Shown one piece after another: positions 5,598 through 27,810 of a DNA stretch of 64,000 bases; positions within the stretch are counted from its first letter, which is position 1, and each line of letters opens with the position of its first letter. The DNA comes from an uncultured Gammaproteobacteria bacterium (lineage in GTDB: Bacteria; Patescibacteriota; Microgenomatia; Levybacterales; UBA12049): NCBI GenBank assembly GCA_964474445.1, contig CAYYSJ010000001.1, positions 345,377 to 409,376 of the forward strand, written 5' to 3'. The translations under genes were made by a program, and so were the position numbers. The notes beneath the pieces are model-generated. The model searched no databases, was not told the DNA's origin, and saw nothing but the letters and a program-made list of their open reading frames with translations.

Positions 5598-7550
5598 CTA
5601 TAAACCGCTAATTGAAGTAATTGTTGCAGATGTGGAGCCACTATTTGTATTTACACCAACCCAAACAGCAACTCTTGTGTTAGCATTAATACCACTTACT
5701 ACACCATTTTTAAGATCTGAAAAACTATGGTTTTTTCCATCAGAAATAAGATAAAACAGAGAGGATCCAGTAACAACGTCTGTTCCGCTCTGAGAAGTTG
5801 GACCTAGACCATAGGTATCGCCATTTAATCCTGTCATAACGCCATTTGAATTCCATGCAAAAAATTCATTATCATTGTTTACGTCAAACCATAAGTTTAG
5901 TCCAAAGGGACTACCGCTACCATTTACTGTAAAGTTAGGCAAGTTGCCCAACGCTCCTTTATATAAGACAAATCCTGAATCAGCATAGCCAATGGCATTG
6001 TTAACACTAACAGTGACACTCCCATTACTATTTTTTGTTTGTGTAGCAACTCCTGATGAAAAAGGGCTGGTAGACCTAATAAAGTTCGTCCCATCATTAA
6101 TTGTGTAGTAGGTAATTTTATTCTGCAAAAGACTTTGAAAAGGGTAATACGCTGCTAATCCTGACTCTGTACCAATTAATTCTTGATTATAATTAGTACT
6201 AATTTGTGTTCCTGTTCTCACAACATTCCATATTCGTATATCATCCATTTTTGCATCAATAAATCTCATTACTTGGTGGTTAAAATAGAGAGCACCAATA
6301 AGCGGATGTTGCACACTTTCATAGGATAAGGTAATTGGAGCGGTAATCATACCATCAGACGAGCCATCACGGTAGAATTTAACGATTGTCCCATCAAAAG
6401 TAACAGCATAGTGATGCCATGAGCCAGTGGTAGGTGATGTGGTAGCTGCTACATTAATACTGGAACTGGAAGTTTGCACATAAAAACGCATCTTTCCATT
6501 ATCTCCATCATAGAAGACCTCCCACCCTAATCCATTCGTATCACCTAAATTACTTACAAGTGCTGGGTAATTACCAGGCCCAGGCAAACTATTAAACTTA
6601 GCCCAAAATTCAACGGTAATATTTGGCGACGGCTTCCATGCAGAATTGTCTGTTGTATTTAAATATTGGGAAGAAGCGCCTGACAAATTTACAGCTTCTG
6701 ATAAGCCAGTAAAAGGAAAGTCCGTTGTCCACTCTGTTGCTCCATGATTTGTAAGATTATTTCCATTAGTTGATTTATCCCCTAAATCCCACTTGGGTTG
6801 AGGTAAATTTTCAAAAGGATAATATGCTGCTAACCCGTCTTCGGTTCCTGTTAATTCTACACTTTTACTATCATTAATTTGTGCTCCTGTTCTCACAACA
6901 TTCCATATTCGCACATCATCAATCTTTGCATCAATAAATCGAGTTACAGTACCTCCAAAATAAATTGCACCAATAAGTGGGTTTTGCCCGCTTTCATAGG
7001 CCATTGTAATTGGAGCATTAACACTCCCATCAGCAGAACCATCTAGATAGAATTTCACGGTTGTTCCATCAAAAGTAACTGCATAATGATGCCAAACTCC
7101 TGTAGTAACTGTGGTATTTGCGGCAACGTTTATACTAGATCCTAATCGCTGCACATAAAAATGAATCTTTCCATCATCCCCACTATAAAAGTAATCCCAA
7201 CCCAAGCCATTCATTCCACTCAAATTGCTTACTAAAACAGGATAATTACCCGATCCTGGAAGACTGTTAAACTTCGCCCAGAGTTCAATAGTAATATTTG
7301 GTGTTGGTTTCCAGGCAGAGTTATCAGAAACACTTATGTACTGAGACGAAACTGCAGATAAATTAACAGCTTCTGATGAAGTGACAAAAGGAGTATCAGT
7401 TGTGACTTCTGTTGCACCATGATTTGTGAGGTTGTTTCCATTAGGCGATTTATCGCCTAAATCAAACGAAGCAAATACATGAGTCGTGGAGATAGATATA
7501 AAAAGGAAGAGAAAAATAAACGAGGAAAAAATCTGAATAAATTTTTTCAT
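5598..7550 (-). CDS. Secreted protein with two tandem ~225-aa LamG/ConA-like (laminin-G_3 type) jelly-roll domains plus an S/T/G/N-rich C-terminal region
   Basis: A signal peptide is visible (MKKFIQIFSSFIFLFLFISISTTHVFA|S). Each repeat contains WAKFNSLPG...HHYAVTFDG...FY.DGS...FIDAK.DD.RIWN. Many N-x-S/T sequons are present. The gene is flanked by the two largest ordinary intergenic gaps. Confidence 0.65.
   Translation of the reverse strand: MKKFIQIFSSFIFLFLFISISTTHVFASFDLGDKSPNGNNLTNHGATEVTTDTPFVTSSEAVNLSAVSSQYISVSDNSAWKPTPNITIELWAKFNSLPGSGNYPVLVSNLSGMNGLGWDYFYSGDDGKIHFYVQRLGSSINVAANTTVTTGVWHHYAVTFDGTTVKFYLDGSADGSVNAPITMAYESGQNPLIGAIYFGGTVTRFIDAKIDDVRIWNVVRTGAQINDSKSVELTGTEDGLAAYYPFENLPQPKWDLGDKSTNGNNLTNHGATEWTTDFPFTGLSEAVNLSGASSQYLNTTDNSAWKPSPNITVEFWAKFNSLPGPGNYPALVSNLGDTNGLGWEVFYDGDNGKMRFYVQTSSSSINVAATTSPTTGSWHHYAVTFDGTIVKFYRDGSSDGMITAPITLSYESVQHPLIGALYFNHQVMRFIDAKMDDIRIWNVVRTGTQISTNYNQELIGTESGLAAYYPFQSLLQNKITYYTINDGTNFIRSTSPFSSGVATQTKNSNGSVTVSVNNAIGYADSGFVLYKGALGNLPNFTVNGSGSPFGLNLWFDVNNDNEFFAWNSNGVMTGLNGDTYGLGPTSQSGTDVVTGSSLFYLISDGKNHSFSDLKNGVVSGINANTRVAVWVGVNTNSGSTSATITSISGL
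6111..7466 (-). repeat. Intragenic tandem duplication, 2 units of about 675 nt, encoding the two LamG domains
   Basis: The nucleotide repeat is visible directly. For example, cctgttctcacaacattccatattcg occurs at 6211 and at 6886 with similar flanking sequence. The two protein repeat units are visibly similar, with scattered substitutions. Confidence 0.8.
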
Positions 7551-7701: not shown

Positions 7702-8532
7702 TTATTTTTTCCGCATAAATAGTACTGCTAGTGTAAAAACAAGAATTACTAAACTTATCCCACTCACCCATACCCCTTTATCCACCCACTCTTGTGGCTG
7801 ATAATAGACACGAAGAGTATATGATCCATTTTGGGGTAAAACAAAACTATTTAATGATTTTTCAAAAGGTTGGGAAGTAATGAGTATTTTGCCTAGAGAA
7901 GCTTTCCACCCACTATCAAAACTCTCCGCAAAAACTATTCTATCGCCTTTTTGTACATTTTTTACGCTCACGTTATATCTTGTTGGATTAATAAATTTGT
8001 AAGAAAGAGTTAGTTGGCCTTCCATCCAGAAACGACCTTTTGGATTACTTACTTCAAAAACGTGAATTCTCCCAAACCCTGGAATCTCATGTAGCCAGGA
8101 AATTTGTCTTACTGCATCAAGTGTTTTCTGATATGTAAACTCATCATACTTTCTATCTTTCAGGAAAAGTTCTCCTTCACTATCAAAAGGGATTATGACA
8201 TACTTTACACTTCTCTCTTGAAGTAGCTTTTCAGCGCCATCTTTTTCTAGGTTATCCAAAACTCCTGAAATGCTTGAGACATGATAATAGTCCTGTGCTG
8301 GAATAGCAGGATTGTTACTGGTAAAAAAACTAAACCTCTGGAAATTAGGTATCCAAAGACTTCGAGAAAATGAATCATGAGATGAAAGATATCTTTCTAA
8401 TTTTTTATAATCATTTGGTATAGTATGGGGCTTGAAAGTACCTCCCAATTTTCCCATTAAAGCAAAGCGTACAGGCCACAAAAGTAGTATTACAATGCTA
8501 AAAATAAAAATAAAATTAAGTATTTTTTTCAT
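7702..8532 (-). CDS. Membrane-anchored extracytoplasmic domain protein homologous to the C-terminal domain of YfhO-like GT-C proteins; appears to be a separately encoded half of a split GT-C
   Basis: It has an N-terminal signal anchor (FIFIFSIVILLLWPV) and a C-terminal TM (VWVSGISLVILVFTLAVLF). RIVFAESFDSGWKASLGK...YYQPQEW matches LLFISDQFYPGWKAFMDGQ...SYQPTSF of 54770..57139. Start and stop overlap the next gene as ATGA. Confidence 0.6.
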   Translation of the reverse strand: MKKILNFIFIFSIVILLLWPVRFALMGKLGGTFKPHTIPNDYKKLERYLSSHDSFSRSLWIPNFQRFSFFTSNNPAIPAQDYYHVSSISGVLDNLEKDGAEKLLQERSVKYVIIPFDSEGELFLKDRKYDEFTYQKTLDAVRQISWLHEIPGFGRIHVFEVSNPKGRFWMEGQLTLSYKFINPTRYNVSVKNVQKGDRIVFAESFDSGWKASLGKILITSQPFEKSLNSFVLPQNGSYTLRVYYQPQEWVDKGVWVSGISLVILVFTLAVLFMRKK

Positions 8533-9722
8533 TTACTAACCCTTACTTTTATAATTTCATATATTCTGTTAAGACTATATGGGATAAGGACAATATAGCT
8601 AACTGCAACCAACATGTACCATTTTGTCGGATCCCGAAACATAATAAATCCTGGAACATGATCAAACATCCAAAGGTATAGTCCACCGAATGGATCATTT
8701 GCTCCTTTTGCTAAAAAAACACCCATAAGTCCTACCAACACAAAACACAAGATATATATTCGTTCCTTTTTTTCCCTGAGCAAACGGAGTGAATCGTAGG
8801 GTTTAAGAAATAGCAATGAACCAAAAGCAAGAAGTGGATACACTAGGAATTCGGGTCTCATAAAATTTACCTTCCCAAAGATATTTTCTGGCCAATTCGG
8901 ATGCAATAGTCCTAATGCATTCTCAAAAAATGCAAAACTAAAAAATTTTACAGCTCCTACTCCTGTATAAACTTCTCCAAATTGACTCATGGCAGACCCG
9001 CGACTAAACAGAAGAGGTAATATCCAAAATGCATGCAGGCCAAGAGTGAAAAGGGCAGGAACACCAACGGTGTAAAAAAATCTTTTAATTAACTTATTCC
9101 CTGGAAAGTAATAAAGAAAATAGAAAAATGTTATGATGGCAAGTATTGGGAGACTTACATACACTATTCTAAAATCAAAGAGAATCAAGATACTCAAACT
9201 ATATGTAAATAAAAGTGATAAAAAGAATGAATCAGAATTTTCTAAAAGGTTTAAATATGTTAATACAAGAAATGGAAGACAAGAATAAGCTAAGGCAACA
9301 CCATTTTGCCCTCCTCCAATAAGCATTAATGCATATGTGTTTGTCGTATATAGAAAGCTTCCAATGAGTGCGAAAGAAGAGTTGCCAACTATTTTTTTTG
9401 TTAATAAATATGCTGATGTTAGAGAGAGTACAAGAAAAGGGAAAAACCAAAATATTCTTTCATACATTTTCCAATCTATTCCCTGCGCTAATTTCATCGT
9501 TCCTACAAAATATACCTCAAGAGGTAACTTAATAACTTTATTATTGCCTACTCCAGAATACCTATCGTCCCATGAAGTAAGCAATGTTGTGTTTTTCACC
9601 ATAGTAGACGAGTAGTATGTCCAATCACCACCCGTTAATAACTCTCCTCCCAACCAATTCCTAAAGATAAAAATAACAGCCAATACAAAAATGACAAATG
9701 AAAACGCAAAGATTTTTTTCAT
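8529..9722 (-). CDS. YfhO-like GT-C membrane module (397 aa, multi-TM) lacking the usual C-terminal soluble domain
   Basis: It has about 10 hydrophobic helices and a first-loop GGDWTYY motif like the other YfhO-like paralogs. It ends right after the TM region. Stop TGA is at 8529-8531, overlapping the ATG of 7702..8532. Confidence 0.6.
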   Translation of the reverse strand: MKKIFAFSFVIFVLAVIFIFRNWLGGELLTGGDWTYYSSTMVKNTTLLTSWDDRYSGVGNNKVIKLPLEVYFVGTMKLAQGIDWKMYERIFWFFPFLVLSLTSAYLLTKKIVGNSSFALIGSFLYTTNTYALMLIGGGQNGVALAYSCLPFLVLTYLNLLENSDSFFLSLLFTYSLSILILFDFRIVYVSLPILAIITFFYFLYYFPGNKLIKRFFYTVGVPALFTLGLHAFWILPLLFSRGSAMSQFGEVYTGVGAVKFFSFAFFENALGLLHPNWPENIFGKVNFMRPEFLVYPLLAFGSLLFLKPYDSLRLLREKKERIYILCFVLVGLMGVFLAKGANDPFGGLYLWMFDHVPGFIMFRDPTKWYMLVAVSYIVLIPYSLNRIYEIIKVRVSK

Positions 9723-9725
9723 ATA

Positions 9726-10766
9726 TTATTTGTCAAACCCTCTTACAGCATATACTTGATTGATGATTTTTGAATAGCCCTCTATTTTCCCTCGCCCTTT
9801 GACATTTTCTATGTAGATTTTTCTAACAAAATCAAGGACAAATCTTGGAATAATAAATGCAGACAATAGGAATAACCAATATTTTATAGAAAATGTATAA
9901 GATGAATTCAATTCTCTAATCCTCTTTGCGTATTTTAAAAGGTTTGAATTATTTGAGTTATATTTGATAATTGCTAGAAAACTGACATTAATGGCCAATT
10001 GTCGATTAAGCGTTTTTTTATAATACTCCTCCCCTGCTACGACTCGAATTGCATTATATAACTCTTCCCATGCTATTTTTCCTTTTTTGACGTAATAGCC
10101 TGGATGCTTTTGCTGATGGGACCAGGATGCAATAATAGAATACTTTTGCTGGAAAAATCCTCCATATTTTTGAATATTTGAGTAGCACATGTCAAACCAT
10201 GGGATAAGCTCAGAGTCAAGGATAGTAATTTTTTTAGGGTGTATGTTTTTAAAAATAATTCCAGTTATAAAATACAAATCAATTTTTTCAATATACCCAA
10301 CTATTTCTGCAGGTGTAGCACCTGCTTTTAATTGCAAATCTGCTCTCAGAAATTTATTTCTCACATAATCAAAAACATCCTTTTTATCAAATGTCTGGTA
10401 AACATAATTAAGTCTTATTAAACCATAGTGGTGTTTTGCGATTAAATTATATACACCTTCCAAAACATCATCATAGAGAAGATAATCATCATCCCCATGT
10501 ATAAAAACATATTCACCTTTAGCATAAGACAAAACATTACCAATATTTTTCACTGCACCTAAATTCTTTGGATTTTTATAATACCTAACTCTTTTATCTT
10601 TATATGCTTTTACTCTTTTAGCAGTGTCATCTGTGGAATTATCATCACAAATAATAATTTCAAAATCTTTAAAGGTTTGTGCTAATAAACGTTTTATAGC
10701 AAAATCTACTTCTTCCGATCTATTGTATGTAGCGATTGGAATGGAAAAAAATGGACGTTTCTTCAT
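9726..10766 (-). CDS. GT2 glycosyltransferase
   Basis: Motifs seen: FSIPIATYNRSEEV, IICDDNSTDDT, VFIHGDDDYL. Confidence 0.75.
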   Translation of the reverse strand: MKKRPFFSIPIATYNRSEEVDFAIKRLLAQTFKDFEIIICDDNSTDDTAKRVKAYKDKRVRYYKNPKNLGAVKNIGNVLSYAKGEYVFIHGDDDYLLYDDVLEGVYNLIAKHHYGLIRLNYVYQTFDKKDVFDYVRNKFLRADLQLKAGATPAEIVGYIEKIDLYFITGIIFKNIHPKKITILDSELIPWFDMCYSNIQKYGGFFQQKYSIIASWSHQQKHPGYYVKKGKIAWEELYNAIRVVAGEEYYKKTLNRQLAINVSFLAIIKYNSNNSNLLKYAKRIRELNSSYTFSIKYWLFLLSAFIIPRFVLDFVRKIYIENVKGRGKIEGYSKIINQVYAVRGFDK

Positions 10767-11866
10767 AGTACTTTCTGAAGCATAGCAAGACTTTTTTCTA
10801 CTCTTTTTTTATCAATCTCTCGTCCTATTGTATTATAGTAACCCACCTTAGATCTACTAATAGTTTTTAAAAGTGAAACACGAAGGTAATACATCCAGTA
10901 TTTGGGCAATGCATATAAAGTACTTACCTCTATACCGTACCCCTTACAAAAATAAAGAAATTTTTGACTATCTTCCTCTCTAAAAAGAAATGTATCAATA
11001 AAAGCTATTTCCCATAGTTGATCACCAAAAATACTGTCCTCCCAATCAAATATAGCACTGATAACTCCTCCAAAAGTTTTGATATTCCTTGTTCCTGGAT
11101 CATTATGCAACAAGGATAAATTTTGTGTCGCTAACACTTGTTTAGAATTCTTAAAAACAATTTGTATCAAATCAGCATCTTTTTTATCAATAATTCCTAT
11201 TTCTCTTGTTTGTTGTATATGGGAAAGCAGTTGAGTGGTGAAAAACTCATTCCAGGAATTAAAGGATCCTATAAGAGTATTCCTTTGTACTAATTCAGTG
11301 AAATTAAGCGTACCCGCTTTATCGGCAGTAATAGTATGTATTTTTTTAAAAATTTTCCCTAAATTTTTGTAAATATTCTTGATCTCTTGTCCATTATAGA
11401 AATCTAAATTGTCTCCTTTCTCATATGCCATAATCATGAAGTCGAATGGGTAAATACTTCGTGAAATATCAACAGCATACACTGTAAGAAAAGGTAATTT
11501 TTTTTCTTCTAGCAATTTTTGAATCTTCGCCTCTTGGAAAAAAGAGAAATCTCTGTATCTCTCTATAATGTTCACTTTTAATACATATGTAGATCTATTT
11601 GTTGTTACTGCAAAAAGAACATGAAAGGTCGTTTTTACTTCAATCTTTTTTATCATTATAACAATTTCATCAAGGTTCTCCCTAAAAATTTTCTTAATCG
11701 TATTTTCATCAATATAAGAATATGTTTGTTGGAGATCTCCTAAGTTTTTGGATAGGAATTCTGAATCCGATTTTGGATGGAACATAGATTCCCGTAACAC
11801 TTGATATTGTTCTAGAGATTTCTGAGGATATTGATAATTAAAATTCTTTGTAACCAAAGTATTCAT
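10763..11866 (-). CDS. Aminoglycoside-phosphotransferase/choline-kinase-fold kinase (APH-like)
   Basis: A catalytic-loop HxDxxxxN is present (LLHNDPGTRNI), as is a DFG-equivalent (IFDWEDSIFGD). Length is 367 aa. Confidence 0.6.
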   Translation of the reverse strand: MNTLVTKNFNYQYPQKSLEQYQVLRESMFHPKSDSEFLSKNLGDLQQTYSYIDENTIKKIFRENLDEIVIMIKKIEVKTTFHVLFAVTTNRSTYVLKVNIIERYRDFSFFQEAKIQKLLEEKKLPFLTVYAVDISRSIYPFDFMIMAYEKGDNLDFYNGQEIKNIYKNLGKIFKKIHTITADKAGTLNFTELVQRNTLIGSFNSWNEFFTTQLLSHIQQTREIGIIDKKDADLIQIVFKNSKQVLATQNLSLLHNDPGTRNIKTFGGVISAIFDWEDSIFGDQLWEIAFIDTFLFREEDSQKFLYFCKGYGIEVSTLYALPKYWMYYLRVSLLKTISRSKVGYYNTIGREIDKKRVEKSLAMLQKVL

Positions 11867-12758
11867 TAAAGTGAGCTGTCAACAATTTAATTTTCTCGTA
11901 TTCTTTCTTGGAAAGCTCATTCCTTTTTGCCATATTATATTCAACTGTTGGATACTGAACTGTCCCCCATGGATAGATATTCTCCAATTTTTCCCCATTC
12001 CAGGAAGGATAAAGGAGTGAATTATCAAATGATATCTCTAATTTTTTGCAAAGACCTGTAAAGAATTTCTTTTGATTATCAATCATATCTTCAAATCGCA
12101 TAATAATAACGTTGTCTGGATAAATTTTTGAAAAATTAATTGCTGTTAATTGAATAATATTCCAGGTGTTAATATATCTATCAAGAGTCAGTGGTGCGGG
12201 TCGATGTTTAGTCTCCGCGAAGGAAGAAAATGGGTTTCTAACAACATGAAGTATTTTAGCCTTTGGAAAATCAGCAATAATTTTATCTGCATCCAAAATC
12301 TGTACTGGATTATATCCCACATAAATTTTTTCTTTTCCTGATGCATTAAAATTTTTCCATGCTTTAAAGGTCGAAATATAAAAAGCCTTTACAATATTTG
12401 CTCGTGTCAATTCTTCATTTTTTAAAAGTTCTAGGAAAATTTCCTTTCTCTCTTTATCAACAAGTTGAATATCAGCATCTTTAAATTTACTCATGTGTGG
12501 AGTTTTTACTCGAATTTTTACTTCTTCATCAAAAATATCCTCATATATTTCATCAAGCCCTTGTCCTAGAGCAAATTGTGGCCATCGATATTTATATGGA
12601 ACCAAAGAGGCTAAATAATCTGATACCCGTCTATTACCAACTTGTGATTCAAATGGATAAGTAAAAAGAAGAGGATGCCCATCAAGGTGACGCTGTGTAG
12701 TATTTCCGCCATTCTCATACATTGCGGAAATCATAATAAATCGAAATGCCTTATCCAT
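11838..12758 (-). CDS. Sulfotransferase-like P-loop protein (putative PAPS-dependent)
   Basis: An N-terminal 5'-PSB-like segment is present (ISAMYENGGNTTQRHL). A 3'-PB-like segment is also present (KILHVVRNPFSSF, compare the consensus RDPRD...S). Length is 306 aa. Confidence 0.45.
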   Translation of the reverse strand: MDKAFRFIMISAMYENGGNTTQRHLDGHPLLFTYPFESQVGNRRVSDYLASLVPYKYRWPQFALGQGLDEIYEDIFDEEVKIRVKTPHMSKFKDADIQLVDKERKEIFLELLKNEELTRANIVKAFYISTFKAWKNFNASGKEKIYVGYNPVQILDADKIIADFPKAKILHVVRNPFSSFAETKHRPAPLTLDRYINTWNIIQLTAINFSKIYPDNVIIMRFEDMIDNQKKFFTGLCKKLEISFDNSLLYPSWNGEKLENIYPWGTVQYPTVEYNMAKRNELSKKEYEKIKLLTAHFNEYFGYKEF

Positions 12759-12813
12759 AAAGAGTATTATAGCTGGTAAAAATGCATAATTCTATAGTTA
12801 ATTTCCAAATTTA

Positions 12814-13830
12814 CTATGTATTTTTTGTGAAATTCCACTTTGCACTATTATACTGTACTTCTTTTTGCCACTGGATTGTTGCTCTCAAACCTTGTTCTAG
12901 AGTAAAGAGAGGCTTCCACCTCAGTTTTTTTTTAATGTTTTCGTTATTACCATACCAATCTTCCAAATCCCAATTTCTATTTTTCATCCCTCCAAATGTA
13001 GGAGAAATTTTCATTTTTACTATTTTCTTTACCAGTAAAGCAAGCTGCCGTATAGTCGTTTTTTTGCCAGTTGCAACATTAAATACTTCACCATAAAGCA
13101 GAGGAGACATGCATACTGCCGCATAAATAAATGCAGATACAATATCATCTACATAAATAAAGTCTCTTGAAATTGAAGGATCTACAAAATGAGGAAATTC
13201 TCCATGTCGCGCCTTTTCTAAAAGGGTAGGAATGAGTCTGTCTTGCTCCTCCCAAGGACCAAAAGCTGAATAAAGTCGCAAATGTATAACAGGCATCTTT
13301 TCAACTTTTCCGTAATATTTTAAAGTGAAGTAGTTTGATACTTTTGAAACTGCATAATGACTATTTGGACTTAGCTCCCCATCTTCTTTTGGAGCCGATG
13401 AGTTAAGTCCATATTCTGACTGTGATCCAGCATGGATATATGCTGCAATTTTTTTATCCCTCAGTGTCTCAAGAAGCTGAATTGTTGAAAAGACATTTGT
13501 CTCATAAATCTTTTTAACCTCTTGCTGTTTGGAATAAGCACCATAAGCTGCTAAATTAAATACGGTTTTTGGCTTTATCTTCTTGATTACTTTCTCCAAC
13601 TGTTCATTATTGGTAAGATCGCAGTCTAGAAAATGTTTGCGAGGAATTTTTGCTGCTATAAAGCGCCAGTTATGCATGCTGTCATGAGAAACTCCATAAA
13701 CATCTTTTCTGAAAAGGAGAATTTTTTGAATAAGATTTACTCCAATAAATCCTCCAGCACCAAAAATCAGTATCGGACCTTGTACTTTTTTTATTTGCGT
13801 TTTCAAGTCTTTTTTTATTGCCATCTTCAT
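12814..13830 (-). CDS. NAD-dependent sugar epimerase/dehydratase (extended SDR)
   Basis: Motifs seen: IFGAGGFIG, catalytic YAVSK, and serine AGSQSEYG. Confidence 0.75.
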   Translation of the reverse strand: MKMAIKKDLKTQIKKVQGPILIFGAGGFIGVNLIQKILLFRKDVYGVSHDSMHNWRFIAAKIPRKHFLDCDLTNNEQLEKVIKKIKPKTVFNLAAYGAYSKQQEVKKIYETNVFSTIQLLETLRDKKIAAYIHAGSQSEYGLNSSAPKEDGELSPNSHYAVSKVSNYFTLKYYGKVEKMPVIHLRLYSAFGPWEEQDRLIPTLLEKARHGEFPHFVDPSISRDFIYVDDIVSAFIYAAVCMSPLLYGEVFNVATGKKTTIRQLALLVKKIVKMKISPTFGGMKNRNWDLEDWYGNNENIKKKLRWKPLFTLEQGLRATIQWQKEVQYNSAKWNFTKNT

Positions 13831-14729
13831 AGAAGTCTTTTAATATTTTTCAATATACCCTCTGGATCCAATTCATTTTCTTTCTGATGGAAAGCGTGGT
13901 TTCCGTAAAGGTGAGAAAGATAACCTTTTGCAAAAAGATGCACAAAATTTCCGGAAGACAGATTTCTTTTTCCTAAAATAGAGAATAGCTTTTCTCCAAG
14001 TCCACCTACTCCCGAATGTTCCTCAACAACAAGTAACTTTTGAGTCTTGCGAATAGAAACAAATATTTCATCTGACAACTCGGTTGGTAATTCTGTTATA
14101 ACAAAAAGATCTATAACGTTTTCTTCTTTCAACTGATCAATTGCCTGCAGAACATTGTGAATAAGTGGTCCTAAAACAACAAGAGTTATTTTTTCTCCAT
14201 TTTTAATATGCCGAATTGGTGCATATGGAGGAAGCTGTATAGTTGTTTGAGGAGCTAAATTGAGACGAAGATACGAAGGTGCATTATTTTTATAGATTTT
14301 CTCCACAACAAAAGGCATATCCTCGACAAAAGCAGGAATATAAAGTTGCATATTGGGAAAAGATGAGTAAATTGCCACATCTTCCAACAGATGATGAGAT
14401 TCTCCCATAATGCCATACCCATAGCCACCACCAAACCCAGCTAGTTTTACTGGAAGATTGAGGTGGCATACATCATTCCTTACTTGTTCAACGGTCTTAA
14501 GAGTTAAAAATGTTGAGATACTATATACCCAAGGTTTAAGTCCTACATAGCAAAGGCCTGCAGCTACTGAAATCATATTTTGTTCAGCAACACCAGCATT
14601 GATAAAGCGTTCTCCGATACCATATCTTATCCCTTCAAATGCATTAAACCCTAAATCACCTGTGAGAAAGAAAATTTTTTTATCTTTTTTAGCGATTTTT
14701 TCCAGCTCTGTGATAAATTCTTTTTTCAT
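13827..14729 (-). CDS. Transketolase C-terminal section (Pyr and C-terminal domains of a split transketolase)
   Basis: ERFINAGVAEQNMISVAAGL matches the transketolase pyrimidine-binding motif. Length is 300 aa. It has a 4-nt overlap with the downstream epimerase. Confidence 0.8.
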   Translation of the reverse strand: MKKEFITELEKIAKKDKKIFFLTGDLGFNAFEGIRYGIGERFINAGVAEQNMISVAAGLCYVGLKPWVYSISTFLTLKTVEQVRNDVCHLNLPVKLAGFGGGYGYGIMGESHHLLEDVAIYSSFPNMQLYIPAFVEDMPFVVEKIYKNNAPSYLRLNLAPQTTIQLPPYAPIRHIKNGEKITLVVLGPLIHNVLQAIDQLKEENVIDLFVITELPTELSDEIFVSIRKTQKLLVVEEHSGVGGLGEKLFSILGKRNLSSGNFVHLFAKGYLSHLYGNHAFHQKENELDPEGILKNIKRLL

Positions 14730-14732
14730 ACG

Positions 14733-15548
14733 TCATTGTACCTTCCTATCAATTGATAAAAGTGCTTTTTTGTACAGATCATCTGTAAGAGTATGATAAT
14801 GCCAACCAATTTGGTTTTCCATAAATGTTACGCCATGACCTTTGATAGTATCAAAAATAATTACTTTGGGTTTGTTTCCTTTTAATTTCCCTACTTTCTT
14901 GAATACCTTTTCTATATGAACAGGATTATGACCATCAGCAGTAAAGACTTCAAAACCAAATGCCTCCCATTTTTCAGGAGTTGTTGATTTTCCTAGTACT
15001 TCTGCTGTCTTTCCAAATGCCTGAATCTTATTGTTATCTACTAGTACTACTAAATTTTTTAACTTTTTGGCTGTGGCATATTGGGCTGCTTCCCATACTT
15101 GACCTTCATTACATTCGCCATCAGACATCAAACAATAGACCATTGCTGGCTTTTTTGATTTTCGTAAATAAAGGTACGCTTGTGCCATTCCTGAAGCTAT
15201 TGATAATCCATGTCCTAAACTACCTGATGGGAAAGGAATGAATTCATCTAAGTCAGCAGCAGGATGAGCTGGTAATTTTGTTCCATTAGTATGAAAAGTC
15301 TGTAAATCTTTATCAGATAACCTGCCAATAGCATTCAAAACAACATACAGTGCAGGAACAGCATGACCTTTTGAGAGAATGAACTTATCATTTTTTTTAA
15401 TAACAGAAGAAAATAGCACTCTTAAGATGTCCAAGCAGGACAATGAACTTCCAATATGGCCCGCATGAGCATTATACAAGAGAGTAAGCAGATTTTTATG
15501 CAAAATATTTCTATTGAGTTTTTTTCGGATAGATATAGCTTTGGCCAT
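14733..15548 (-). CDS. Transketolase N-terminal section (TPP-binding domain of a split transketolase)
   Basis: Motifs seen: GHIGSSLSCLDIL, GSLGHGLSIASGMA and the TPP motif MSDGECNEGQVWEAAQYA. The track start is TTG at 15569. I prefer the ATG at 15548 (MAKAISIRKK). Confidence 0.8.
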   Translation of the reverse strand: MAKAISIRKKLNRNILHKNLLTLLYNAHAGHIGSSLSCLDILRVLFSSVIKKNDKFILSKGHAVPALYVVLNAIGRLSDKDLQTFHTNGTKLPAHPAADLDEFIPFPSGSLGHGLSIASGMAQAYLYLRKSKKPAMVYCLMSDGECNEGQVWEAAQYATAKKLKNLVVLVDNNKIQAFGKTAEVLGKSTTPEKWEAFGFEVFTADGHNPVHIEKVFKKVGKLKGNKPKVIIFDTIKGHGVTFMENQIGWHYHTLTDDLYKKALLSIDRKVQ

Positions 15549-15671
15549 TTGTTGCTCAATTATACACAAAAAATTATCCTTGTATACACCTAAGAATTAT
15601 CAGTTCTATCAGATTTCTTCATTATTGCAAAAACTATTGCTAATTGAGAAAATCATTGATGGTAAAATCAT

Positions 15672-16376
15672 ATGAGAAAAACTTTTTCCGTTATACTTCC
15701 CGTATACCATCAGTCCAACCAAATTGCACTTATTATTAAAAACTATACACATGGATTAACAAAATTAAAAAAGCCATTTGAGCTTCTGCTTGTTATCAAT
15801 GGAAATGACACTGCATCCTATAAAGAGGCAGTAAGGCTGGCAAGAAATAATTCCTCTATCCGGGTTATTTTCATAAAAGAATCTGGGTGGGGAAACGCCG
15901 TTTTGGTAGGATTGCAAAAAGCACAAGGCAAACTTATTTGTTATACCAATTCCGCACGTACACAGATTGACGATCTACTTGCAATGCTACGCTTTGCAGA
16001 CAAAAACCCTTCTATTGTTATTAAAGCAACAAGAATGCTTCACGTCAGTCCACTTAGAAAAATTGGCTCAACGCTTTACAATATAGAATGCCGACTTCTT
16101 CTGCATACTCCTGTGTGGGATGTCAATGGAACTCCGAAAGTTATTCCATATATGGTTACAAAAAAAATAAATCTTCAATCAAAGGATGACCTTATTGATG
16201 CAGAGCTTGTCGCAAAATGCATTGCCCTGCATATACCTATATTAGAAGTTCCAATTCTTTTTCCTCCTCGCTTTGGGGGCAAAAGTACAACAAATTATTT
16301 TTCTGCAATAAAGATGTATCTAGGGGTATTACGAATTCGAAAAATGGTGAGAAATATATTTCTTCATCAAGGGTAA
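15672..16376 (+). CDS. GT2 glycosyltransferase (one of three plus-strand genes in the glycan locus)
   Basis: FSVILPVYHQSNQIA is a GT-A N-terminal signature. Length is 234 aa. It is divergent from the transketolase operon. Its 3' end overlaps the convergent 16329..18302 gene by 48 nt. Confidence 0.65.
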   Translation: MRKTFSVILPVYHQSNQIALIIKNYTHGLTKLKKPFELLLVINGNDTASYKEAVRLARNNSSIRVIFIKESGWGNAVLVGLQKAQGKLICYTNSARTQIDDLLAMLRFADKNPSIVIKATRMLHVSPLRKIGSTLYNIECRLLLHTPVWDVNGTPKVIPYMVTKKINLQSKDDLIDAELVAKCIALHIPILEVPILFPPRFGGKSTTNYFSAIKMYLGVLRIRKMVRNIFLHQG

Positions 16377-18302
16377 CAAAAGAAGCATTCCCCATATAAT
16401 AAATGAGATAAAGGAAATAAGAAGCCCAATGCGAAAGGTACGTGAAGCATAAGAGAAGACATATGTATGATTTCCTTCGAGTGTTTGTACCTCTAGAAAA
16501 CGATGAGACAAAAGCTGTTGGTTTTTACCATCTATCCAAACATTCCATCCAGGATAATTCATTTGAGCAAGGGAAAGAATTTGTTTACTTTGTGCATTTG
16601 TCTTAATTCGAAAGGTATTAACACCAACATCCACATGTTGTGCTTGTGTACTTCCCTTTCCATCATATAACACAGCGAAGGGTCTTCCGGTTGATAATTC
16701 ATATACCGATGTGTCATCTTTTTGATACACTTTTTTTGCAGTCTCAGGGATATTATTGATTTGATTATGGGGAGTAATAAAATACCCCGGCTGAATGTCT
16801 TGGTAATTTGCAGCATAATCATATGGAGAGGGTCTTTTAACAAAGGCAAATGCTAAAGCAGGGCTATTTTTTAAAACAAAACCATAATTCGTATTTAACA
16901 ATCTTTGATTATGGTAATAAATAACGTCCTCAGGTACTTCATTAATCCAATTTTCCGCTAACACATAGTAGTTTTGTGTATTGTGTTTTTCAATCCAAGA
17001 AAAAATATCGTTGTATAAAGAATAATTTGCAGGGAACACACTATATGCAACAAGAGACGGATTAATAAGCATAGTTTCAAAGAAAAAAATTGTACAAAAG
17101 AGATTTAAAACAAGCATTGGAAAAACAAAGATACGGTATTTTTTACTTCTTAGAAGATATTCAGAAAAAAGGCCAAAAATCACCAAGATGATAACAACAA
17201 AATATGCATATGCTCTGCTCGGTACTCTAAAATATTGTAGTGAGGGTATAAAGGTTATTAACCAATGATAAGGGTTTACTAATAAAGCTGGCATAAGCAT
17301 AAGAAAGAAAGTGCAAAAAAGAAGTACCAGAAATATTTTTGACGGAATGTTTATCTTTTTATATTCCTTTATCATCCAAACAATTCCGATGAAGGGGAAA
17401 ATACCGATGAACGCTGTTTTCTCAAGATCTCCCCAAGCTGTTGAAATAAAAGAAGACAAATACGTAAGTTGAAATGGTTTATCAAATGGTATAAAAAGAT
17501 ATCGTATCATGCTTATAATTGTTTGACTTCCCTCAAACGGTTCTTTAGACTTCCCCAAGTACGTTTGCAACTCAACTATTGGTAATATTTTAACTGCAGA
17601 AAATAGCCCCATTAAGACAGCGGTGACAAAGAAATAAAAGAATACTTTTTTTTCTTTGAAAAAGAAATAACAGGCTAGTACAGAAAGTGAAAGCATTCCA
17701 TACATAACAAAATAAATACTTCCTGCTGACAAAACATAGAAAAAAGAAAGCGCTGCAATACCGGCCCAAAGAACGTTTTTCTTTCTACCTACTTGCATCA
17801 GAGAAAATATAACAAATGGAAGAATGCCATAAGGGACAACAGACTCAATGTGGCCTGCTGTAATTCGAGCAGCAGGATACCCACATACTGCATACGTGAG
17901 GGCAATAAAGAAAGCGATTGCCTCTGAAGAAACAAAAGACTTTGCCAAAAGGTACATAGTCTCGCATGCAAGAAATAATGAAAGGACATAAATTAGTTTT
18001 ATTGCACCATCATAGGATGGCATAATAATAAGAGGAATACTCATTACTGGGTTATATGCACTATACATAGGATCAGCTATCAAAGGCAACCCTTCTTGTA
18101 TGGTAGGATTCCATTGAGGAAACGTATGACTATGCACTATTGCATCACGAAAGTATAATTCCTGAAGATCCGTACCATTAAGATCGTTGGCATGGACAAC
18201 ATGATTATCTAGAATTACTGGAAGTAAAATTAATAAGCTAAAAATGAGGAATATACCATGAAAAAAAAGTTTATTAGAAAAGAGGATAAGCAATTTATTC
18301 AT
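16329..18302 (-). CDS. YfhO-like GT-C membrane protein with extracytoplasmic C-terminal domain and C-terminal TM anchor
   Basis: Length is 657 aa, with about 12 TM helices. First-loop motifs are GTDLQELYFRD and FPQWNPT...G.P. The C-terminal anchor is FRIGLLISFISFIIWGMLLLL. Confidence 0.6.
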   Translation of the reverse strand: MNKLLILFSNKLFFHGIFLIFSLLILLPVILDNHVVHANDLNGTDLQELYFRDAIVHSHTFPQWNPTIQEGLPLIADPMYSAYNPVMSIPLIIMPSYDGAIKLIYVLSLFLACETMYLLAKSFVSSEAIAFFIALTYAVCGYPAARITAGHIESVVPYGILPFVIFSLMQVGRKKNVLWAGIAALSFFYVLSAGSIYFVMYGMLSLSVLACYFFFKEKKVFFYFFVTAVLMGLFSAVKILPIVELQTYLGKSKEPFEGSQTIISMIRYLFIPFDKPFQLTYLSSFISTAWGDLEKTAFIGIFPFIGIVWMIKEYKKINIPSKIFLVLLFCTFFLMLMPALLVNPYHWLITFIPSLQYFRVPSRAYAYFVVIILVIFGLFSEYLLRSKKYRIFVFPMLVLNLFCTIFFFETMLINPSLVAYSVFPANYSLYNDIFSWIEKHNTQNYYVLAENWINEVPEDVIYYHNQRLLNTNYGFVLKNSPALAFAFVKRPSPYDYAANYQDIQPGYFITPHNQINNIPETAKKVYQKDDTSVYELSTGRPFAVLYDGKGSTQAQHVDVGVNTFRIKTNAQSKQILSLAQMNYPGWNVWIDGKNQQLLSHRFLEVQTLEGNHTYVFSYASRTFRIGLLISFISFIIWGMLLLLPLMKKYISHHFSNS

Positions 18303-19348
18303 ACCATTTTTTGTCTTTTAGCAAAAATAAAATGCAAAAGTATTTGAAAAACAGCTATAACTAAAGTGTAATATCCCCACATTGCTAACTTATTTTCCTG
18401 TGGTAATAGATAAATAATTCCACAAAACTCTGCAAGTAATAAAAAGATAATTGAAAACAGTAATGAGTATGTGTAAGGTAATTTTGAACGTACAATAAAG
18501 ATAATGAGAATTCCAAGAATTCCTAATGTGATTCCATAAAAAATATCATTTAAAAAAACGACATCAGCAATGATTAATAGAAAAGGAGCAATAACTTTTT
18601 TTGACAAAAGGAAAAGGAATATATTTGAAAATGGTAAAGGTGCTATTTCATGAGCTATAGTATTTGAAACAGTGAATACTAACAAAAAATATAAATAAAA
18701 AAACAATGGCAATAAATACAATGATGAAACAAGGAGCATATGAGTACTTGAAAATAACTCAATTACCTTTTCATACAGTAAGGAAAAAAGATATAGTTTT
18801 TTATGGTAAAGTTCTTTAAATGAATATATATATCGTGTAATAAAAGCATTATCTTTTTTTAAAAAAAATACAGCATTTGTCTTATCTCCATCTAGAGAAA
18901 GTACTTCAAACTGATATGTTTTACCAAGGGCTGATGTTATTTTAGGGAAACCAAAAACAAGAAAATTATTTTCTTTTATAGCATCTATCGTATACGTGTG
19001 TTGATAATATGGAACTTGTGCATTTTTCTCTTTGAGAGTAAATTGAATTTTATGTGCTTTATCTGGTTGTACAGAAAGTGTATTACTGACTTGTATTGCA
19101 ATAATACCTAAATTATGTTCTTTCACCCTAAACTCACCTATTAAACTTTCCCCTTGCATTAATAAATTATTTTTAGGCATATGCGTGTATTGATGAAAAC
19201 TATGGAAGTAAAGAAATGTCGTAAAACTTTCATGAGGATTGAATAGAATTGAGGCAATAATCCAGAAAAATAGCAAAAATAATGGAATAATTACCCAAAG
19301 TATTAAAAATTTAAAGCTGATTAAAGTTTGTAATGTTTTTTGTTTCAT
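18299..19348 (-). CDS. Hypothetical membrane protein (N-terminal TM, ~170-aa extracytoplasmic domain, ~6 C-terminal TM)
   Basis: There are no recognisable motifs. It is co-operonic, with 4-nt overlaps, between two YfhO-like genes. Confidence 0.5.
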   Translation of the reverse strand: MKQKTLQTLISFKFLILWVIIPLFLLFFWIIASILFNPHESFTTFLYFHSFHQYTHMPKNNLLMQGESLIGEFRVKEHNLGIIAIQVSNTLSVQPDKAHKIQFTLKEKNAQVPYYQHTYTIDAIKENNFLVFGFPKITSALGKTYQFEVLSLDGDKTNAVFFLKKDNAFITRYIYSFKELYHKKLYLFSLLYEKVIELFSSTHMLLVSSLYLLPLFFYLYFLLVFTVSNTIAHEIAPLPFSNIFLFLLSKKVIAPFLLIIADVVFLNDIFYGITLGILGILIIFIVRSKLPYTYSLLFSIIFLLLAEFCGIIYLLPQENKLAMWGYYTLVIAVFQILLHFIFAKRQKMV

Positions 19349-21651
19349 GTCTTATGTCTCCTTACAATAAACATGCTTATTATGAGTCCTATAAAAGAGA
19401 AAATACTTATCAAAATCCCCAAGTAAAAGTTTAATTGAGGAGTAAAATAAATCGTTAGCAATACATCTATTGATCCATTAGTGTTTACTTTATAAAATGA
19501 TGCATCGTATTGTTTTCGGATAATATTTGGATTAATGATCCATTCATTACTATAGTTTGAATTATGATGATGGATATTATTAAAATTAGCGGTTCTTAAA
19601 AAATAACTTAATTCATCCCCCTCATAAAGAGTGTCTTTGGGTGCGCATTCAATTACATTATCACTCCTCTTTATCCCGTTTTGACATTGTAGTGCTGCAT
19701 TATATTTTTCTATAAAAACTTTCCATCCATTATGATATGATTCTAAAAATTGTAATTTCTCTGGAAATTGAAGGTTTTTTATATAAACTCTATACTTAGT
19801 AGGATTAATTCTTTGAAAAAAACCCTCAGGTATTTGTATCGCTGTATTAGTCTTTTTCATTGTATAGAGTTCAAAATTATCATTTTTACTGACCAAAACC
19901 TTTTGATCTGTAAGGTTATTAATCATAGTCTGATCTTGATTTTGCAATCTAGATCCACCAAAAAAAAGATAAGAGTGTTTTACTTCATTTGGGATGTTTT
20001 TTGTAAATATAATAGCCCCTACATTATATGTGTAAAGCATATTACTTAATTTTTCATAATCACTATTTGCAATATATTGCCACATTTTTCCTGACTCTGA
20101 AGGAGGAAACGATAGTTCACCAGAAAAATCATTTATACCAGTAAAAAATTTGAAAGGAGAAGTTCCCGCGAATATGTTATTACTATTATCTTCTTTTATA
20201 ATCGCATAACCTGCAATATTAAGAGGAACATTCAGGATATTTGTTGTTGGGTCGATCGTTTGTTTTACTTTGGAAATAAAATCAAGATACTCCTGGGAAA
20301 TATTTACATTCTTATGTATTGATTTTGTTGTCCAAAGAGGAGCATTGATAATTTGTTCTATTGGGAGCGTATTTGTTACAATCACTAGAAAGGTAATTCC
20401 TGTAATTAAAAATTTTAGAGGAGAAAATTGTTTATTTACGATAATAAGTGAAAGAGTAAAAAAAACTGCATAAATAAATACATATCCAGGAGCAAATTTG
20501 TCATAAAAATTTCTGAACATAAAAAATCCAGGAAGATGTCCTAACATAAGAAATACTTCCTTAAGAGGACCTATATTTACAGTAAAGAAGAATAGAGATA
20601 AAATAAATGCAACTAAAAAGAATAAATATATACGCTTTTCAGTACTGTTAAGTTTCTTTTCCCAGTAAATAATTCCACCAAAGACAACTGCCACAAATAT
20701 GGTATTAAGGAAAAATGTTTTATCATAAAAACTCAAAAATATATTTCTTAATGGCCACTGATAATCAAATGTTAATTGTCTATGAGGTAGATTTAGAAGT
20801 GGATATAAAATATTACCTGTAGCAGTTTGGATAACAGTTGTGCGAAAAGTACTCGCAATATTAAAAAGATCTCCAAGATTGTTCCCGCCTTTAATAAGGA
20901 ATGTTGTCAAAAAAGGTAAAATCCAAAATGCTTGAGAAACTAAAAGGAAACTAAAAAATAGAATAGCTCGTTTTGCAAAGATAGTTATTATCCTACGTGG
21001 GAAAATAAAGGTCCCAACAAATAAAGTAAGAACTAAAGGAATGAATAATCCTAATATCCACGGGATACTATAAAGGCCTAGAGAAAGAAAAATACTCATT
21101 GTCATTGCATATACAATATATTTCCATTGATTGGTTTTTACGAATTTAATAAATGTCCAAAACAGGAAAGGGATAAGTGGAATAAGCCAAGCAGACATAA
21201 GAAATACAGAGAGTTGATTGACTATCATAATAGGAGAAAAAATATAGAAGAGAGCTCCTACATAGGGTTCTATATAGTTTGGTTTACTAACTAATTCTGA
21301 TATAAGTCTTTTGAAATAAATAAAACCGAGAATAAGAGGTAAAGAGAATGCCAAATAATCTACAACAATCCTTGATTTCAGTAACCAAAAGATAAATGAC
21401 CATATGGCAACAAATGGAAAAGAGTAGTGATTGGGATTAAAATATCCTATTGAAGAGATCGTGGTCCATGAAAAAAAAGACATTGACTTAAAATATTCAA
21501 TTGGATAAGCATATAGTAACCTAGTATCATCACCTCCTACGAATAATTTCCCATTAAATAAGTAGTAAGGAAGTGCAAAAAGCAGGACAATAGTAACCAG
21601 ATCTATAATAAGCTCGTAGTATTTTAGGAAAAGCTGTTTCAATGCAAACAT
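19345..21651 (-). CDS. Large YfhO-like GT-C membrane protein (about 768 aa from the preferred start)
   Basis: The first loop reads FVGGDDTRLLYAYPIEYF. There are many TM helices, then a long soluble domain and a C-terminal TM (FYLGILISIFSFIGLIISMFIV). The track start at 21780 would overlap the divergent gene at 21713. I prefer the internal ATG at 21651 (MFALKQLF...). Confidence 0.6.
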   Translation of the reverse strand: MFALKQLFLKYYELIIDLVTIVLLFALPYYLFNGKLFVGGDDTRLLYAYPIEYFKSMSFFSWTTISSIGYFNPNHYSFPFVAIWSFIFWLLKSRIVVDYLAFSLPLILGFIYFKRLISELVSKPNYIEPYVGALFYIFSPIMIVNQLSVFLMSAWLIPLIPFLFWTFIKFVKTNQWKYIVYAMTMSIFLSLGLYSIPWILGLFIPLVLTLFVGTFIFPRRIITIFAKRAILFFSFLLVSQAFWILPFLTTFLIKGGNNLGDLFNIASTFRTTVIQTATGNILYPLLNLPHRQLTFDYQWPLRNIFLSFYDKTFFLNTIFVAVVFGGIIYWEKKLNSTEKRIYLFFLVAFILSLFFFTVNIGPLKEVFLMLGHLPGFFMFRNFYDKFAPGYVFIYAVFFTLSLIIVNKQFSPLKFLITGITFLVIVTNTLPIEQIINAPLWTTKSIHKNVNISQEYLDFISKVKQTIDPTTNILNVPLNIAGYAIIKEDNSNNIFAGTSPFKFFTGINDFSGELSFPPSESGKMWQYIANSDYEKLSNMLYTYNVGAIIFTKNIPNEVKHSYLFFGGSRLQNQDQTMINNLTDQKVLVSKNDNFELYTMKKTNTAIQIPEGFFQRINPTKYRVYIKNLQFPEKLQFLESYHNGWKVFIEKYNAALQCQNGIKRSDNVIECAPKDTLYEGDELSYFLRTANFNNIHHHNSNYSNEWIINPNIIRKQYDASFYKVNTNGSIDVLLTIYFTPQLNFYLGILISIFSFIGLIISMFIVRRHKT

Positions 21652-21712
21652 ATAAACTTTTCTTATTGTAACAAATATAATTGTATGGTAAAGTGGTAAT
21701 CTATAAGATCGA

Positions 21713-26671: not shown

Positions 26672-26696
26672 TAATCACACAAAAAGCAATCAGCAT

Positions 26697-27803: not shown

Positions 27804-27810
27804 AGATACA

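Follow-up and report, generated by a model that had tools for sequence, protein, structure and literature searches.

A split transketolase and a divergent sulfotransferase-fold protein in a conserved cassette, probably for nucleotide-sugar tailoring, of a Patescibacteriota glycan locus

Split-gene transketolases have been proposed to move a hydroxyacetyl unit onto a keto-sugar when miharamycin and amipurimycin are made, and a 2025 review lists 13 further split transketolase candidates, all from Streptomyces and none characterized in vitro (PMC12247030). In the yersiniose A pathway, YerE, a thiamine diphosphate (ThDP) enzyme of the decarboxylase family, puts the branch on CDP-3,6-dideoxy-4-keto-glucose, and the reductase YerF acts after it (relatives are ErwE and MMAR_2332; PMC9306805). 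We analyzed a 64,000-nucleotide stretch of DNA (the window; positions 345,377 to 409,376 of contig CAYYSJ010000001.1, assembly GCA_964474445.1) from an uncultured bacterium placed by GTDB in the Patescibacteriota (Levybacterales), in which genes for the two halves of a split transketolase, an extended short-chain dehydrogenase/reductase (SDR), a sulfotransferase-like (ST-like) protein and a kinase of the APH fold form one block (Table 1). These genes make up the core of a conserved cassette, probably one that tailors nucleotide-sugars, and are not a local oddity, and we put at roughly 0.5 the probability that its enzymes, together with a small family 2 glycosyltransferase (GT2), would build a C-branched nucleoside diphosphate (NDP)-sugar for the envelope glycan.

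The likeness to the miharamycin and amipurimycin clusters lies in a two-subunit transketolase beside sugar-modifying oxidoreductases and in the proposed ThDP-dependent transfer of a C2 unit to a sugar carbonyl. Those, however, are secondary-metabolite clusters of Streptomyces, likened here by description, whereas the cassette is found in cell-envelope glycan loci of more than 20 phyla and, unlike them, goes together with CDP-glucose genes, with an ST-fold protein, with either an APH or a DUF4915 protein and a small GT2. The yersiniose A pathway would resemble the cassette in that its product enters surface glycans, but YerE is acetolactate-synthase-like and uses pyruvate or 2-keto acids, whereas the ThDP enzyme of the window belongs to the transketolase family and is split. 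The 3-deoxygenation genes of that pathway, E1/E3 (DdhC/DdhD), do not recur in the cassette loci, it has no counterpart of the cassette's ST-fold protein and kinase or propeller partner, and CDP-glucose genes are absent from the window. Our literature search found no paper on the cassette, on DUF4915 or on TIGR03032, and none tying a transketolase to O-antigen clusters in comparable fashion; the transketolase mentioned in a paper on the sulfated capsule of Cobetia is a housekeeping enzyme only.

An earlier sequence-only reading of the window had described five overlapping or abutting minus-strand open reading frames (ORFs) followed by a GT2 gene. All were found in place, and the motifs it quoted were located in the translations (SDGECNEGQVWEA, GVAEQNMISVAAGL, YAVSK, GGNTT, VVRNPFSS, HNDPGTRN and DWED). 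The genes for the N- and C-terminal transketolase subunits (TktN and TktC) are 3 nt apart, TktC overlaps the SDR gene by 4 nt, a gap of 55 nt separates the SDR and ST-like genes, and the ST-like gene overlaps that for APH by 29 nt, which in turn overlaps the GT2 gene by 4 nt. Promoter-like sites between positions 7000 and 16600 (46, versus 42.5±7 in shuffled sequence) and terminator-like sites (5 versus 4.9) occur at the level of shuffled sequence, so the evidence for an operon is limited to these overlapping frames. The family assignments of the earlier reading also stood, as in profile hidden Markov model (HMM) searches judged by Pfam gathering cut-offs all five proteins exceeded theirs (E values: Transketolase_N 5.9e-34, Transket_pyr 1.1e-20, Transketolase_C 6.8e-11, Epimerase 1.8e-40, Sulfotransfer_3 3.6e-12 and APH 2.8e-13). 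None of the five had an NCBIfam equivalog match.

The ST-like protein has 3,513 homolog clusters and is 50–55% identical in widely different phyla, and in a scan of one genome per species the family was carried by 421 species genomes from more than 20 phyla. The carriers include groups of the candidate phyla radiation (CPR), Planctomycetota, Bacteroidota, Alpha- and Gammaproteobacteria, Acidobacteriota, Verrucomicrobiota, Babeliales, Melainabacteria and Actinomycetota, as well as the cultured Bradyrhizobium jicamae and a contig labeled Micrarchaeota. Neighboring ORFs from 80 neighborhoods were first clustered unlabeled, after which family HMMs were run against them. Flanks of 8 kb or more on either side of the ST-like gene were available in 42 loci (full-flank loci). 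Among these, the small GT2 (~247 aa) was present in 40, an SDR in 39, the split transketolase in 37, APH in 33, an NTP_transferase in 19 and DUF4915 in nine. Either APH or DUF4915 occurs in every full-flank locus (42/42) and both occur in none, an exclusivity that extends across all 80 loci. With an identity across phyla of 52–55%, compared to 26–29% for APH, 35–38% for TktN and 31–34% for TktC, the ST-like protein is the best-conserved member of the cassette, far above its partners. The gene order in Chthonomonas calidirosea and in an Acidobacteriota metagenome-assembled genome (MAG) is NTP_transferase – SDR – ST-like – APH – SDR – TktN – TktC – GT2, and a Gottesmanbacteria MAG has all of the cassette genes in dispersed positions. 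The gene set recurs in one phylum after another, and its grouping is therefore far beyond chance. The proposal of the sequence-only reading that the genes form one functional block inside a glycan locus is supported; that reading had overlooked the divergently transcribed small GT2 as a core member and the wide spread of the cassette.

The closest solved chains to TktN and TktC are those of the split transketolase of Carboxydothermus (6yak, 4e-47, and 6yaj, 3e-32, respectively). We aligned 48–60 cassette orthologs to the Carboxydothermus reference, with residue numbers that we take to be those of E. coli TktA. Membership of the transketolase family is evident from the PP, Pyr and C domains, all above cut-off, and from the equivalents of His26, His66, His100, His261 and His473, of the metal ligands Asp155 and Asn185 and of the cofactor residue Glu411, which are kept in the window and in 44–60 orthologs; the GDG motif reads SDG, as it does in 45 of 48 cassette orthologs. 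In canonical transketolase, the ligands of the substrate phosphate and acceptor are presumably Arg358, Ser385, His461, Arg520 and Asp469, of which His461 and Arg520 contact the phosphate and Asp469 reads the C2 hydroxyl of the acceptor. Several of the phosphate and acceptor ligands expected of a pentose-phosphate enzyme are replaced in the cassette: His461 has become glycine in 60/60 orthologs, the equivalent of Asp469 is aspartate in just four of 60 and otherwise glutamine, alanine or methionine (methionine in the window), and the window enzyme has leucine for Arg520 and asparagine for Ser385. With the cofactor and catalytic residues kept and the acceptor ligands lost, the catalytic machinery appears to be intact and the acceptor pocket remodeled. 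As judged from these residues, such a pocket would fit a bulky acceptor that is not a phosphosugar, for example an NDP-keto-sugar, and the cassette enzyme is most likely a specialized paralog that adds a C2 unit to an NDP-keto-sugar. The earlier suggestion of a chain-extended or branched sugar made by ThDP-dependent C2 transfer is thus still the best reading of a cassette-specific transketolase that has a remodeled pocket and in many loci comes after genes for CDP-glucose synthesis and 4,6-dehydration.

The sequence-only reading had also allowed that the two halves might be the only transketolase of the organism, that is, its ordinary pentose-phosphate enzyme, which would then sit in a glycan locus by chance. 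Split transketolases do have housekeeping roles in some bacteria and archaea, and one of these enzymes provides the closest solved structure. Nonetheless, the pair accompanies the cassette in 37/42 loci and in more than 20 phyla, it is also present in the Chthonomonas and Bradyrhizobium genomes of at least 3.4 Mb, and the active-site substitutions are family-wide. Because of these substitutions and the synteny with the cassette, the pair is not a housekeeping enzyme; this explanation is largely refuted and we give it very little probability.

The cassette varies among the loci examined. Two of them (L009 and L010), which have the longest synteny to the window, are syntenic with it over positions 7702..22666, yet their transketolase halves (7779..8998, versus 13827..15569 in the window) are only 30–37% identical to those of the window, while the flanking cassette genes are 61–69% identical, and their TktC aligns with the TktC of the window over just 156 aa. 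The transketolase halves of a Levyibacteriota locus (L016) are 53–58% identical to those of the window. These identities suggest that the transketolase pair may have been replaced in mosaic fashion within the cassette. A minimal variant without transketolase, in which genes for the small GT2, an SDR of a second class (SDR1) and a cytidylyltransferase are divergent from those for the ST-like protein and APH, was found in three loci (L026, L046 and L064, the last two from Babeliales), and could be the simplest system in which to resolve the role of the ST-like/APH pair. The contig JAOAKI010000013.1, labeled Candidatus Micrarchaeota archaeon (L042), has ST-like, APH, GT2 and SDR genes at 10001..13938 and an NTP_transferase gene upstream; its archaeal label reflects either transfer of the cassette between domains or a binning error.

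The SDR of the window has the motifs GAGGFIG, GSQSEYG and YAVSK and belongs to the main cassette class (GSxxEYG...YAVSK, consensus GSSSEYG), which occurs in 38 loci; it is 55–62% identical to the copies in L009, L010, L016 and Bacteroidota. It lacks the signature of NDP-sugar 4,6-dehydratases, an acid/base pair ahead of YxxxK that reads SDK in CDP-sugar and TDE in dTDP-sugar enzymes. The SDR encoded after APH in Chthonomonas is of the same motif type, and both are probably the ketoreductase or epimerase of the cassette. An equivalog match to TIGR02623 (385 bits versus a cut-off of 300) identifies the cassette NTP_transferase as a glucose-1-phosphate cytidylyltransferase, which is invariably followed by SDR1, whose best match is CDP-glucose 4,6-dehydratase and which carries the motif SSDKAYG. 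We take the Asp-Lys pair of this motif to be the signature of CDP-glucose 4,6-dehydratase. SSDKAYG is confined to the separate SDR1 class and is not present in the window.

The identity of the NTP_transferase bears on a different role for the transketolase, in which it would make a free ketose or ketose-phosphate precursor (e.g., of an alditol phosphate or a heptose) that is reduced by the SDR, phosphorylated by APH and activated by a nucleotidyltransferase, following the logic of LicA/LicC or TarI/TarJ, with none of the chemistry taking place on an NDP-sugar. Free sugar phosphates are the normal substrates of transketolase, choline kinases and anomeric sugar kinases are among the enzymes of the APH fold, and an NTP_transferase is available in 19/42 loci. 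However, that NTP_transferase is the cytidylyltransferase equivalog, always with the 4,6-dehydratase-like SDR after it, the phosphate ligand His461 is lost in 60/60 orthologs and Arg520 is leucine in the window, and the kinase is swapped for a non-kinase in 9/42 loci, leading us to regard a free-ketose precursor as improbable.

The ST-like protein matches Sulfotransfer_3 (PF13469) with 47.5 bits against a cut-off of 27, although only profile positions 56–215 are aligned, so that the N-terminal, donor-binding part of the protein lies outside the alignment. Its AlphaFold2 model (mean predicted local distance difference test, pLDDT, 88.7) retrieved sulfotransferases as all of its top 50 Foldseek matches in the PDB, the best being CurM-ST (8e-9), OLS-ST and TPST (PDB 4gbm, 4gox and 3ap1; E values of 8e-9 to 1e-6, TM scores of ~0.5–0.6); these three also lead the matches of a profile search. 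The possibility that the protein belongs to a P-loop family other than the sulfotransferases is therefore countered by both Pfam and the fold search, and in the predicted model a genuine sulfotransferase α/β fold is not in doubt. The protein shares with CurM-ST, OLS-ST and TPST the RxLDxHP helix, an aligned catalytic glutamate and the arginine of the 3'-phosphate-binding (3'-PB) motif. It differs from them at the donor ligands. Where the three enzymes have a P-R-S-G-[ST]-T loop and a 3'-PB serine, the ST-like protein has Y-E-N-G-G-N, with Glu15, and Glu182, both fixed as acidic residues in its clade, and its genomic context contains no genes for 3'-phosphoadenosine 5'-phosphosulfate (PAPS).

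To place these replacements, residue equivalences were taken from sequence register in a profile search of 1.84 billion representatives, which gave 3,683 matches, 642 of them at E≤1e-10; full-length representatives fell into tiers that were aligned gap-free, and positions were counted by regular expression and by eye. The sister tier (≤~130 bits) has ISQIQRSGGTLLSQLLDGHP and RNPxSWYAS, that is, the canonical arginine of the 5'-phosphosulfate-binding (5'-PSB) loop and the 3'-PB serine, whereas the clade tier (≥~133 bits) has SAWNDSGGG… or SAMYENGGN… with RxPxSxxxD. The 5'-PSB position is acidic (Glu or Asp) in 25/25 sequences of the cassette clade and arginine in 13/13 sister sequences, and the 3'-PB position is Asp or Glu in 25/25 and serine in 13/13, respectively, so that the two replacements are perfectly correlated across the clade. 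The N-terminal loop of the family, S-A-M-Y-E-N-G-G-N-T-T, is invariant and non-canonical, with Y-E-N-G-G-N-T in place of P-K/R-S-G-T-T and hence no basic residue in the 5'-PSB loop; Glu15 of the window protein is in ungapped register with the arginine of the QRSGGT sisters. In the 3'-phosphate motif R-x-P-x(5)-S, Arg174 is invariant and the serine (+8) is Glu182. Glu37 is kept, in register with the glutamate of 'HP…E' in the sisters and in CurM-ST. With carboxylates at both sites for the PAPS phosphates, canonical PAPS binding is unlikely; Glu15 and Glu182 would instead suit a metal-nucleotide or ribose hydroxyls.

The ST-like gene always adjoins the gene of one partner, APH or DUF4915. The APH protein of the window (PF01636, 50.6 bits) has HNDPGTRN and DWED, which correspond to LLHGDxxxxN and DWED in the consensus of its family, and its Lys97 aligns with a conserved arginine of the APH family, as appropriate for a kinase of the APH/eukaryotic-protein-kinase-like type; its similarity to hygromycin-B 4-O-kinase, homoserine kinase and thiamine kinase is weak. 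DUF4915 was modeled as a six-bladed β-propeller (pLDDT 90.1) whose fold matches are YWTD/NHL-type propellers, including peptidyl-α-hydroxyglycine lyase, and a profile search of PDB sequences returned insignificant β-lactamase matches only. On this model DUF4915 is predicted not to be a kinase. Since a β-propeller that is not a kinase can stand in for APH exactly, nothing implies that the final product carries a phosphate, as the sequence-only reading had envisaged; the kinase step probably belongs to the tailoring chemistry and is not a lasting decoration of the product. One ST relative of the middle tier is directly followed by DUF4915 (one context each was sampled from the middle and canonical tiers). 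Five metagenomic ORFs (P0348, P0288, P0265, P0270 and P0315) are apparent fusions of the ST-like protein with DUF4915 or SDR; several end at contig edges, and these tentative fusions may be gene-calling artifacts.

The sequence-only reading had further raised the prospect of a sulfated glycan, for which the ST-like protein would be a true PAPS-dependent sulfotransferase and APH a glycan or sugar kinase, giving a final sugar that is sulfated and/or phosphorylated. The Pfam score above the gathering cut-off, the uniformly sulfotransferase fold matches, the retention of Arg174 (3'-PB) and of Glu37 at the aligned catalytic position, and the intact catalytic motifs of the kinase are all in keeping with this. 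A further parallel, likened by description only, is found in the wps-1/wps-2 clusters of Actinoplanes missouriensis, where the neighboring WpsH (a sulfotransferase) and WpsI (kinase-like) are both required for normal sporangia and their matrix, and another exopolysaccharide cluster of the same organism has a split transketolase with two DegT aminotransferases (PMC13390465). Against sulfation stand the clade-wide Glu15 and Glu/Asp182 at positions where the sisters keep arginine and serine, the N-terminal third outside the Pfam match, and the exact substitution of a β-propeller for APH. The 64-kb window contains no APS-kinase, ATP-sulfurylase or CysQ-type gene, no PAPS-supply gene recurs in the 80 neighborhoods, and the family is present in lineages with reduced genomes (CPR, Babeliales and the Micrarchaeota-labeled contig). 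The case for a sulfated glycan is weakened by these findings and we consider it unlikely. Somewhat tentatively, it is possible that the ST-fold clade is PAPS-independent, with Glu15 and Glu182 binding a metal-nucleotide or the ribose of an NDP-sugar, and that with its partner it carries out a novel tailoring of a CDP-keto-sugar (for example, deoxygenation by activation and elimination, or cyclization) before the hydroxyacetyl branch is added, which would yield an undescribed envelope sugar that is widespread, including in the CPR.

The small GT2 is 61–65% identical to the copies in L009, L010 and L016, has one hydrophobic segment and resembles the polyprenyl-phosphate transferases ArnC, AglJ and DPM1 (with weak NCBIfam matches to ArnC and AglJ). 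The presence of a small GT2 of this kind by polytopic proteins recalls three-component extracytoplasmic glycosylation (a GtrB/CsbB/ArnC GT2 with a YfhO/ArnT GT-C), from which the cassette differs in that its GT2 is short (~234–247 aa) and of a family lacking a conserved DxD. The polytopic protein encoded next to the small GT2 has weak similarity (3e-9) to the YfhO-family protein at 54770..57139 of the window and is syntenic in L009 and L010 (46–55% identity), leading us to propose it as a candidate GT-C (YfhO-like) transferase that would use a lipid-linked sugar. The two membrane proteins at the other end of the gene string are syntenic in L009, L010 and L015 (34–49% identity). The larger GT2, downstream of APH, is 68–69% identical and syntenic only in L009 and L010, with a partial match in L042, and appears to be lineage-specific and not part of the core cassette. 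It is reasonable to suppose that the sugar is transferred to the envelope glycan via a lipid carrier.

Gene content, conservation, co-occurrence, folds and the active-site residues kept and lost are what the analysis shows. What the substrate is, where the branch lies, how the steps are ordered and what the ST-like/APH pair does chemically we infer, and we propose the following route to a C-branched NDP-sugar. An NDP-keto-sugar would first be supplied, which in about half of the related loci would be CDP-4-keto-6-deoxy-glucose made by the co-encoded cytidylyltransferase and 4,6-dehydratase-like SDR, and in the case of the window would come from a supplier encoded elsewhere. The split transketolase would then place a ThDP-bound C2 (hydroxyacetyl) unit on the sugar carbonyl to give the C-branched sugar, after which the cassette SDR would reduce a keto group. 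Further tailoring, probably not canonical PAPS-dependent sulfation, would be performed by the ST-fold protein and its obligate partner (APH here and DUF4915 elsewhere). Finally, the small GT2 would hand the finished sugar to a carrier or acceptor, and the flanking GT-C-like proteins would attach it to the envelope glycan.

Several points weigh against this route. No cassette enzyme has been characterized and no product is known. The transketolase is missing from 5/42 full-flank loci, which keep the ST-like protein and APH; the step of the ST-like protein and its partner therefore does not require the C2 unit, and the transketolase, though frequent, is optional. Profile scans of the window proteins found no cytidylyltransferase or CDP-glucose dehydratase, so the substrate nucleotide-sugar must come from elsewhere, and the chemistry of the small GT2 is uncertain as its family has no conserved DxD in an alignment of 63 sequences. 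In the ST-like protein, Arg23 and Thr183, which adjoins Glu182, are invariant, and the loss of PAPS ligands would lower the likelihood of sulfotransfer but not make it impossible. Transketolases normally take aldehydes as acceptors, use of a ketone is unproven even for the Streptomyces enzymes, and chain extension at an aldehyde is compatible with our data. In that event, the SDR would oxidize the primary alcohol of an NDP-sugar to the aldehyde and the transketolase would add two carbons to produce a higher sugar of the octose type. Besides the natural preference for aldehydes, this is favored by the lack of a 4,6-dehydratase beside the window cassette and by the cassette SDR, which is of a type other than the dehydratases. 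However, the suppliers encoded in cassette loci are those for CDP-glucose synthesis and a 4,6-dehydratase-like enzyme, whose action takes away the C6 hydroxyl, and we judge chain extension to be decidedly improbable; the loss of Asp469 is compatible with both branching and chain extension.

The entire window is a single glycan locus, in which numerous genes for GT2 and GT4 enzymes are accompanied by those for two Wzx-like flippases, a DegT/formyltransferase/FdtA module, a true GalE (408 bits) and many polytopic membrane proteins related to YfhO and PTPS. The closest named relatives of GalE are from Patescibacteria (81%) and Levybacteria (64%), which makes a CPR bacterium the most likely source of the DNA. 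The window has no nucleotidyltransferase gene, and Rfam and tRNA scans of it found no RNA genes. The module (25589..29112, minus strand) consists of an SDR with weak likeness to dTDP-glucose dehydratase, a DegT aminotransferase, a formyltransferase and an FdtA-like isomerase, followed by a GT2; this content is typical for a 3-formamido-3,6-dideoxyhexose pathway, and no thymidylyltransferase accompanies it within the window. At 39839..46454 (minus strand) there are four successive genes for polytopic membrane proteins of ~550 aa each, the first a PTPS_related/YfhO-like paralog of 61812..63542 and three of the four (41476..46454) mutually paralogous with 29–39% identity, which looks like a tandem expansion of GT-C-type transferases. 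A 179-aa ORF (3752..4291, minus strand) that has the GT4 N-terminal domain only and lies directly upstream of a complete 375-aa GT4 (2619..3746, minus strand) may be what remains of a gene or else belong to a split one. Also within the locus are a protein of 650 aa that carries two Laminin_G_3 (ConA-like lectin) domains (5598..7550, minus strand) and a homolog of PseB/FnlA-like UDP-GlcNAc 4,6-dehydratases (32158..33018, minus strand) with scores below cut-off and a length of 286 aa versus ~324–337 aa in the family models.

Table 1. Genes of the cassette and their immediate neighbors in the window.
Feature	Position	Strand	Length	Pfam match	Remarks
TktN, split transketolase N-terminal (ThDP/PP-domain) subunit	14733..15569	-	278 aa	PF00456	TTG start; first in-frame ATG at 15548, the end given in the sequence-only reading, would give 271 aa
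TktC, split transketolase C-terminal (Pyr + C-domain) subunit	13827..14729	-	300 aa	PF02779, PF02780	
Extended SDR, main cassette class	12814..13830	-	338 aa	PF01370	
ST-like, predicted sulfotransferase-fold protein of divergent clade	11838..12758	-	306 aa	PF13469	
APH-fold (ePK-like) small-molecule kinase	10763..11866	-	367 aa	PF01636	
GT2 glycosyltransferase	9726..10766	-	346 aa	PF00535 (5.9e-25)	downstream of APH
Small GT2 ('X247' family)	15672..16376	+	234 aa	PF00535 (8.7e-8)	divergent from TktN
Polytopic membrane protein	16329..18302	-	657 aa	none	~11 hydrophobic segments
Membrane protein	8529..9722	-	397 aa	none	extends overlapping gene string downstream of GT2
Membrane protein	7702..8532	-	276 aa	none	extends overlapping gene string downstream of GT2

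The cassette is of a known kind in that it would concern ThDP-dependent carbon–carbon tailoring of NDP-keto-sugars, and is unusual in its remodeled split transketolase and in an ST-fold clade obligately paired with a kinase or a β-propeller. If our reading is correct, it would provide a widespread natural test case for carbon–carbon bond formation by transketolase on keto-sugars, a chemistry that has so far been proposed only, and only in Streptomyces antibiotics (PMC12247030). There would also be a large clade of the sulfotransferase fold with charge-inverted donor ligands, making automatic annotations as 'sulfotransferase', and the sulfated glycans deduced from them, unreliable for thousands of sequences. 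The cassette would then be a sign that many uncultured lineages have an unknown sugar in their envelopes, and its cultured hosts Chthonomonas calidirosea and Bradyrhizobium jicamae are experimentally tractable.

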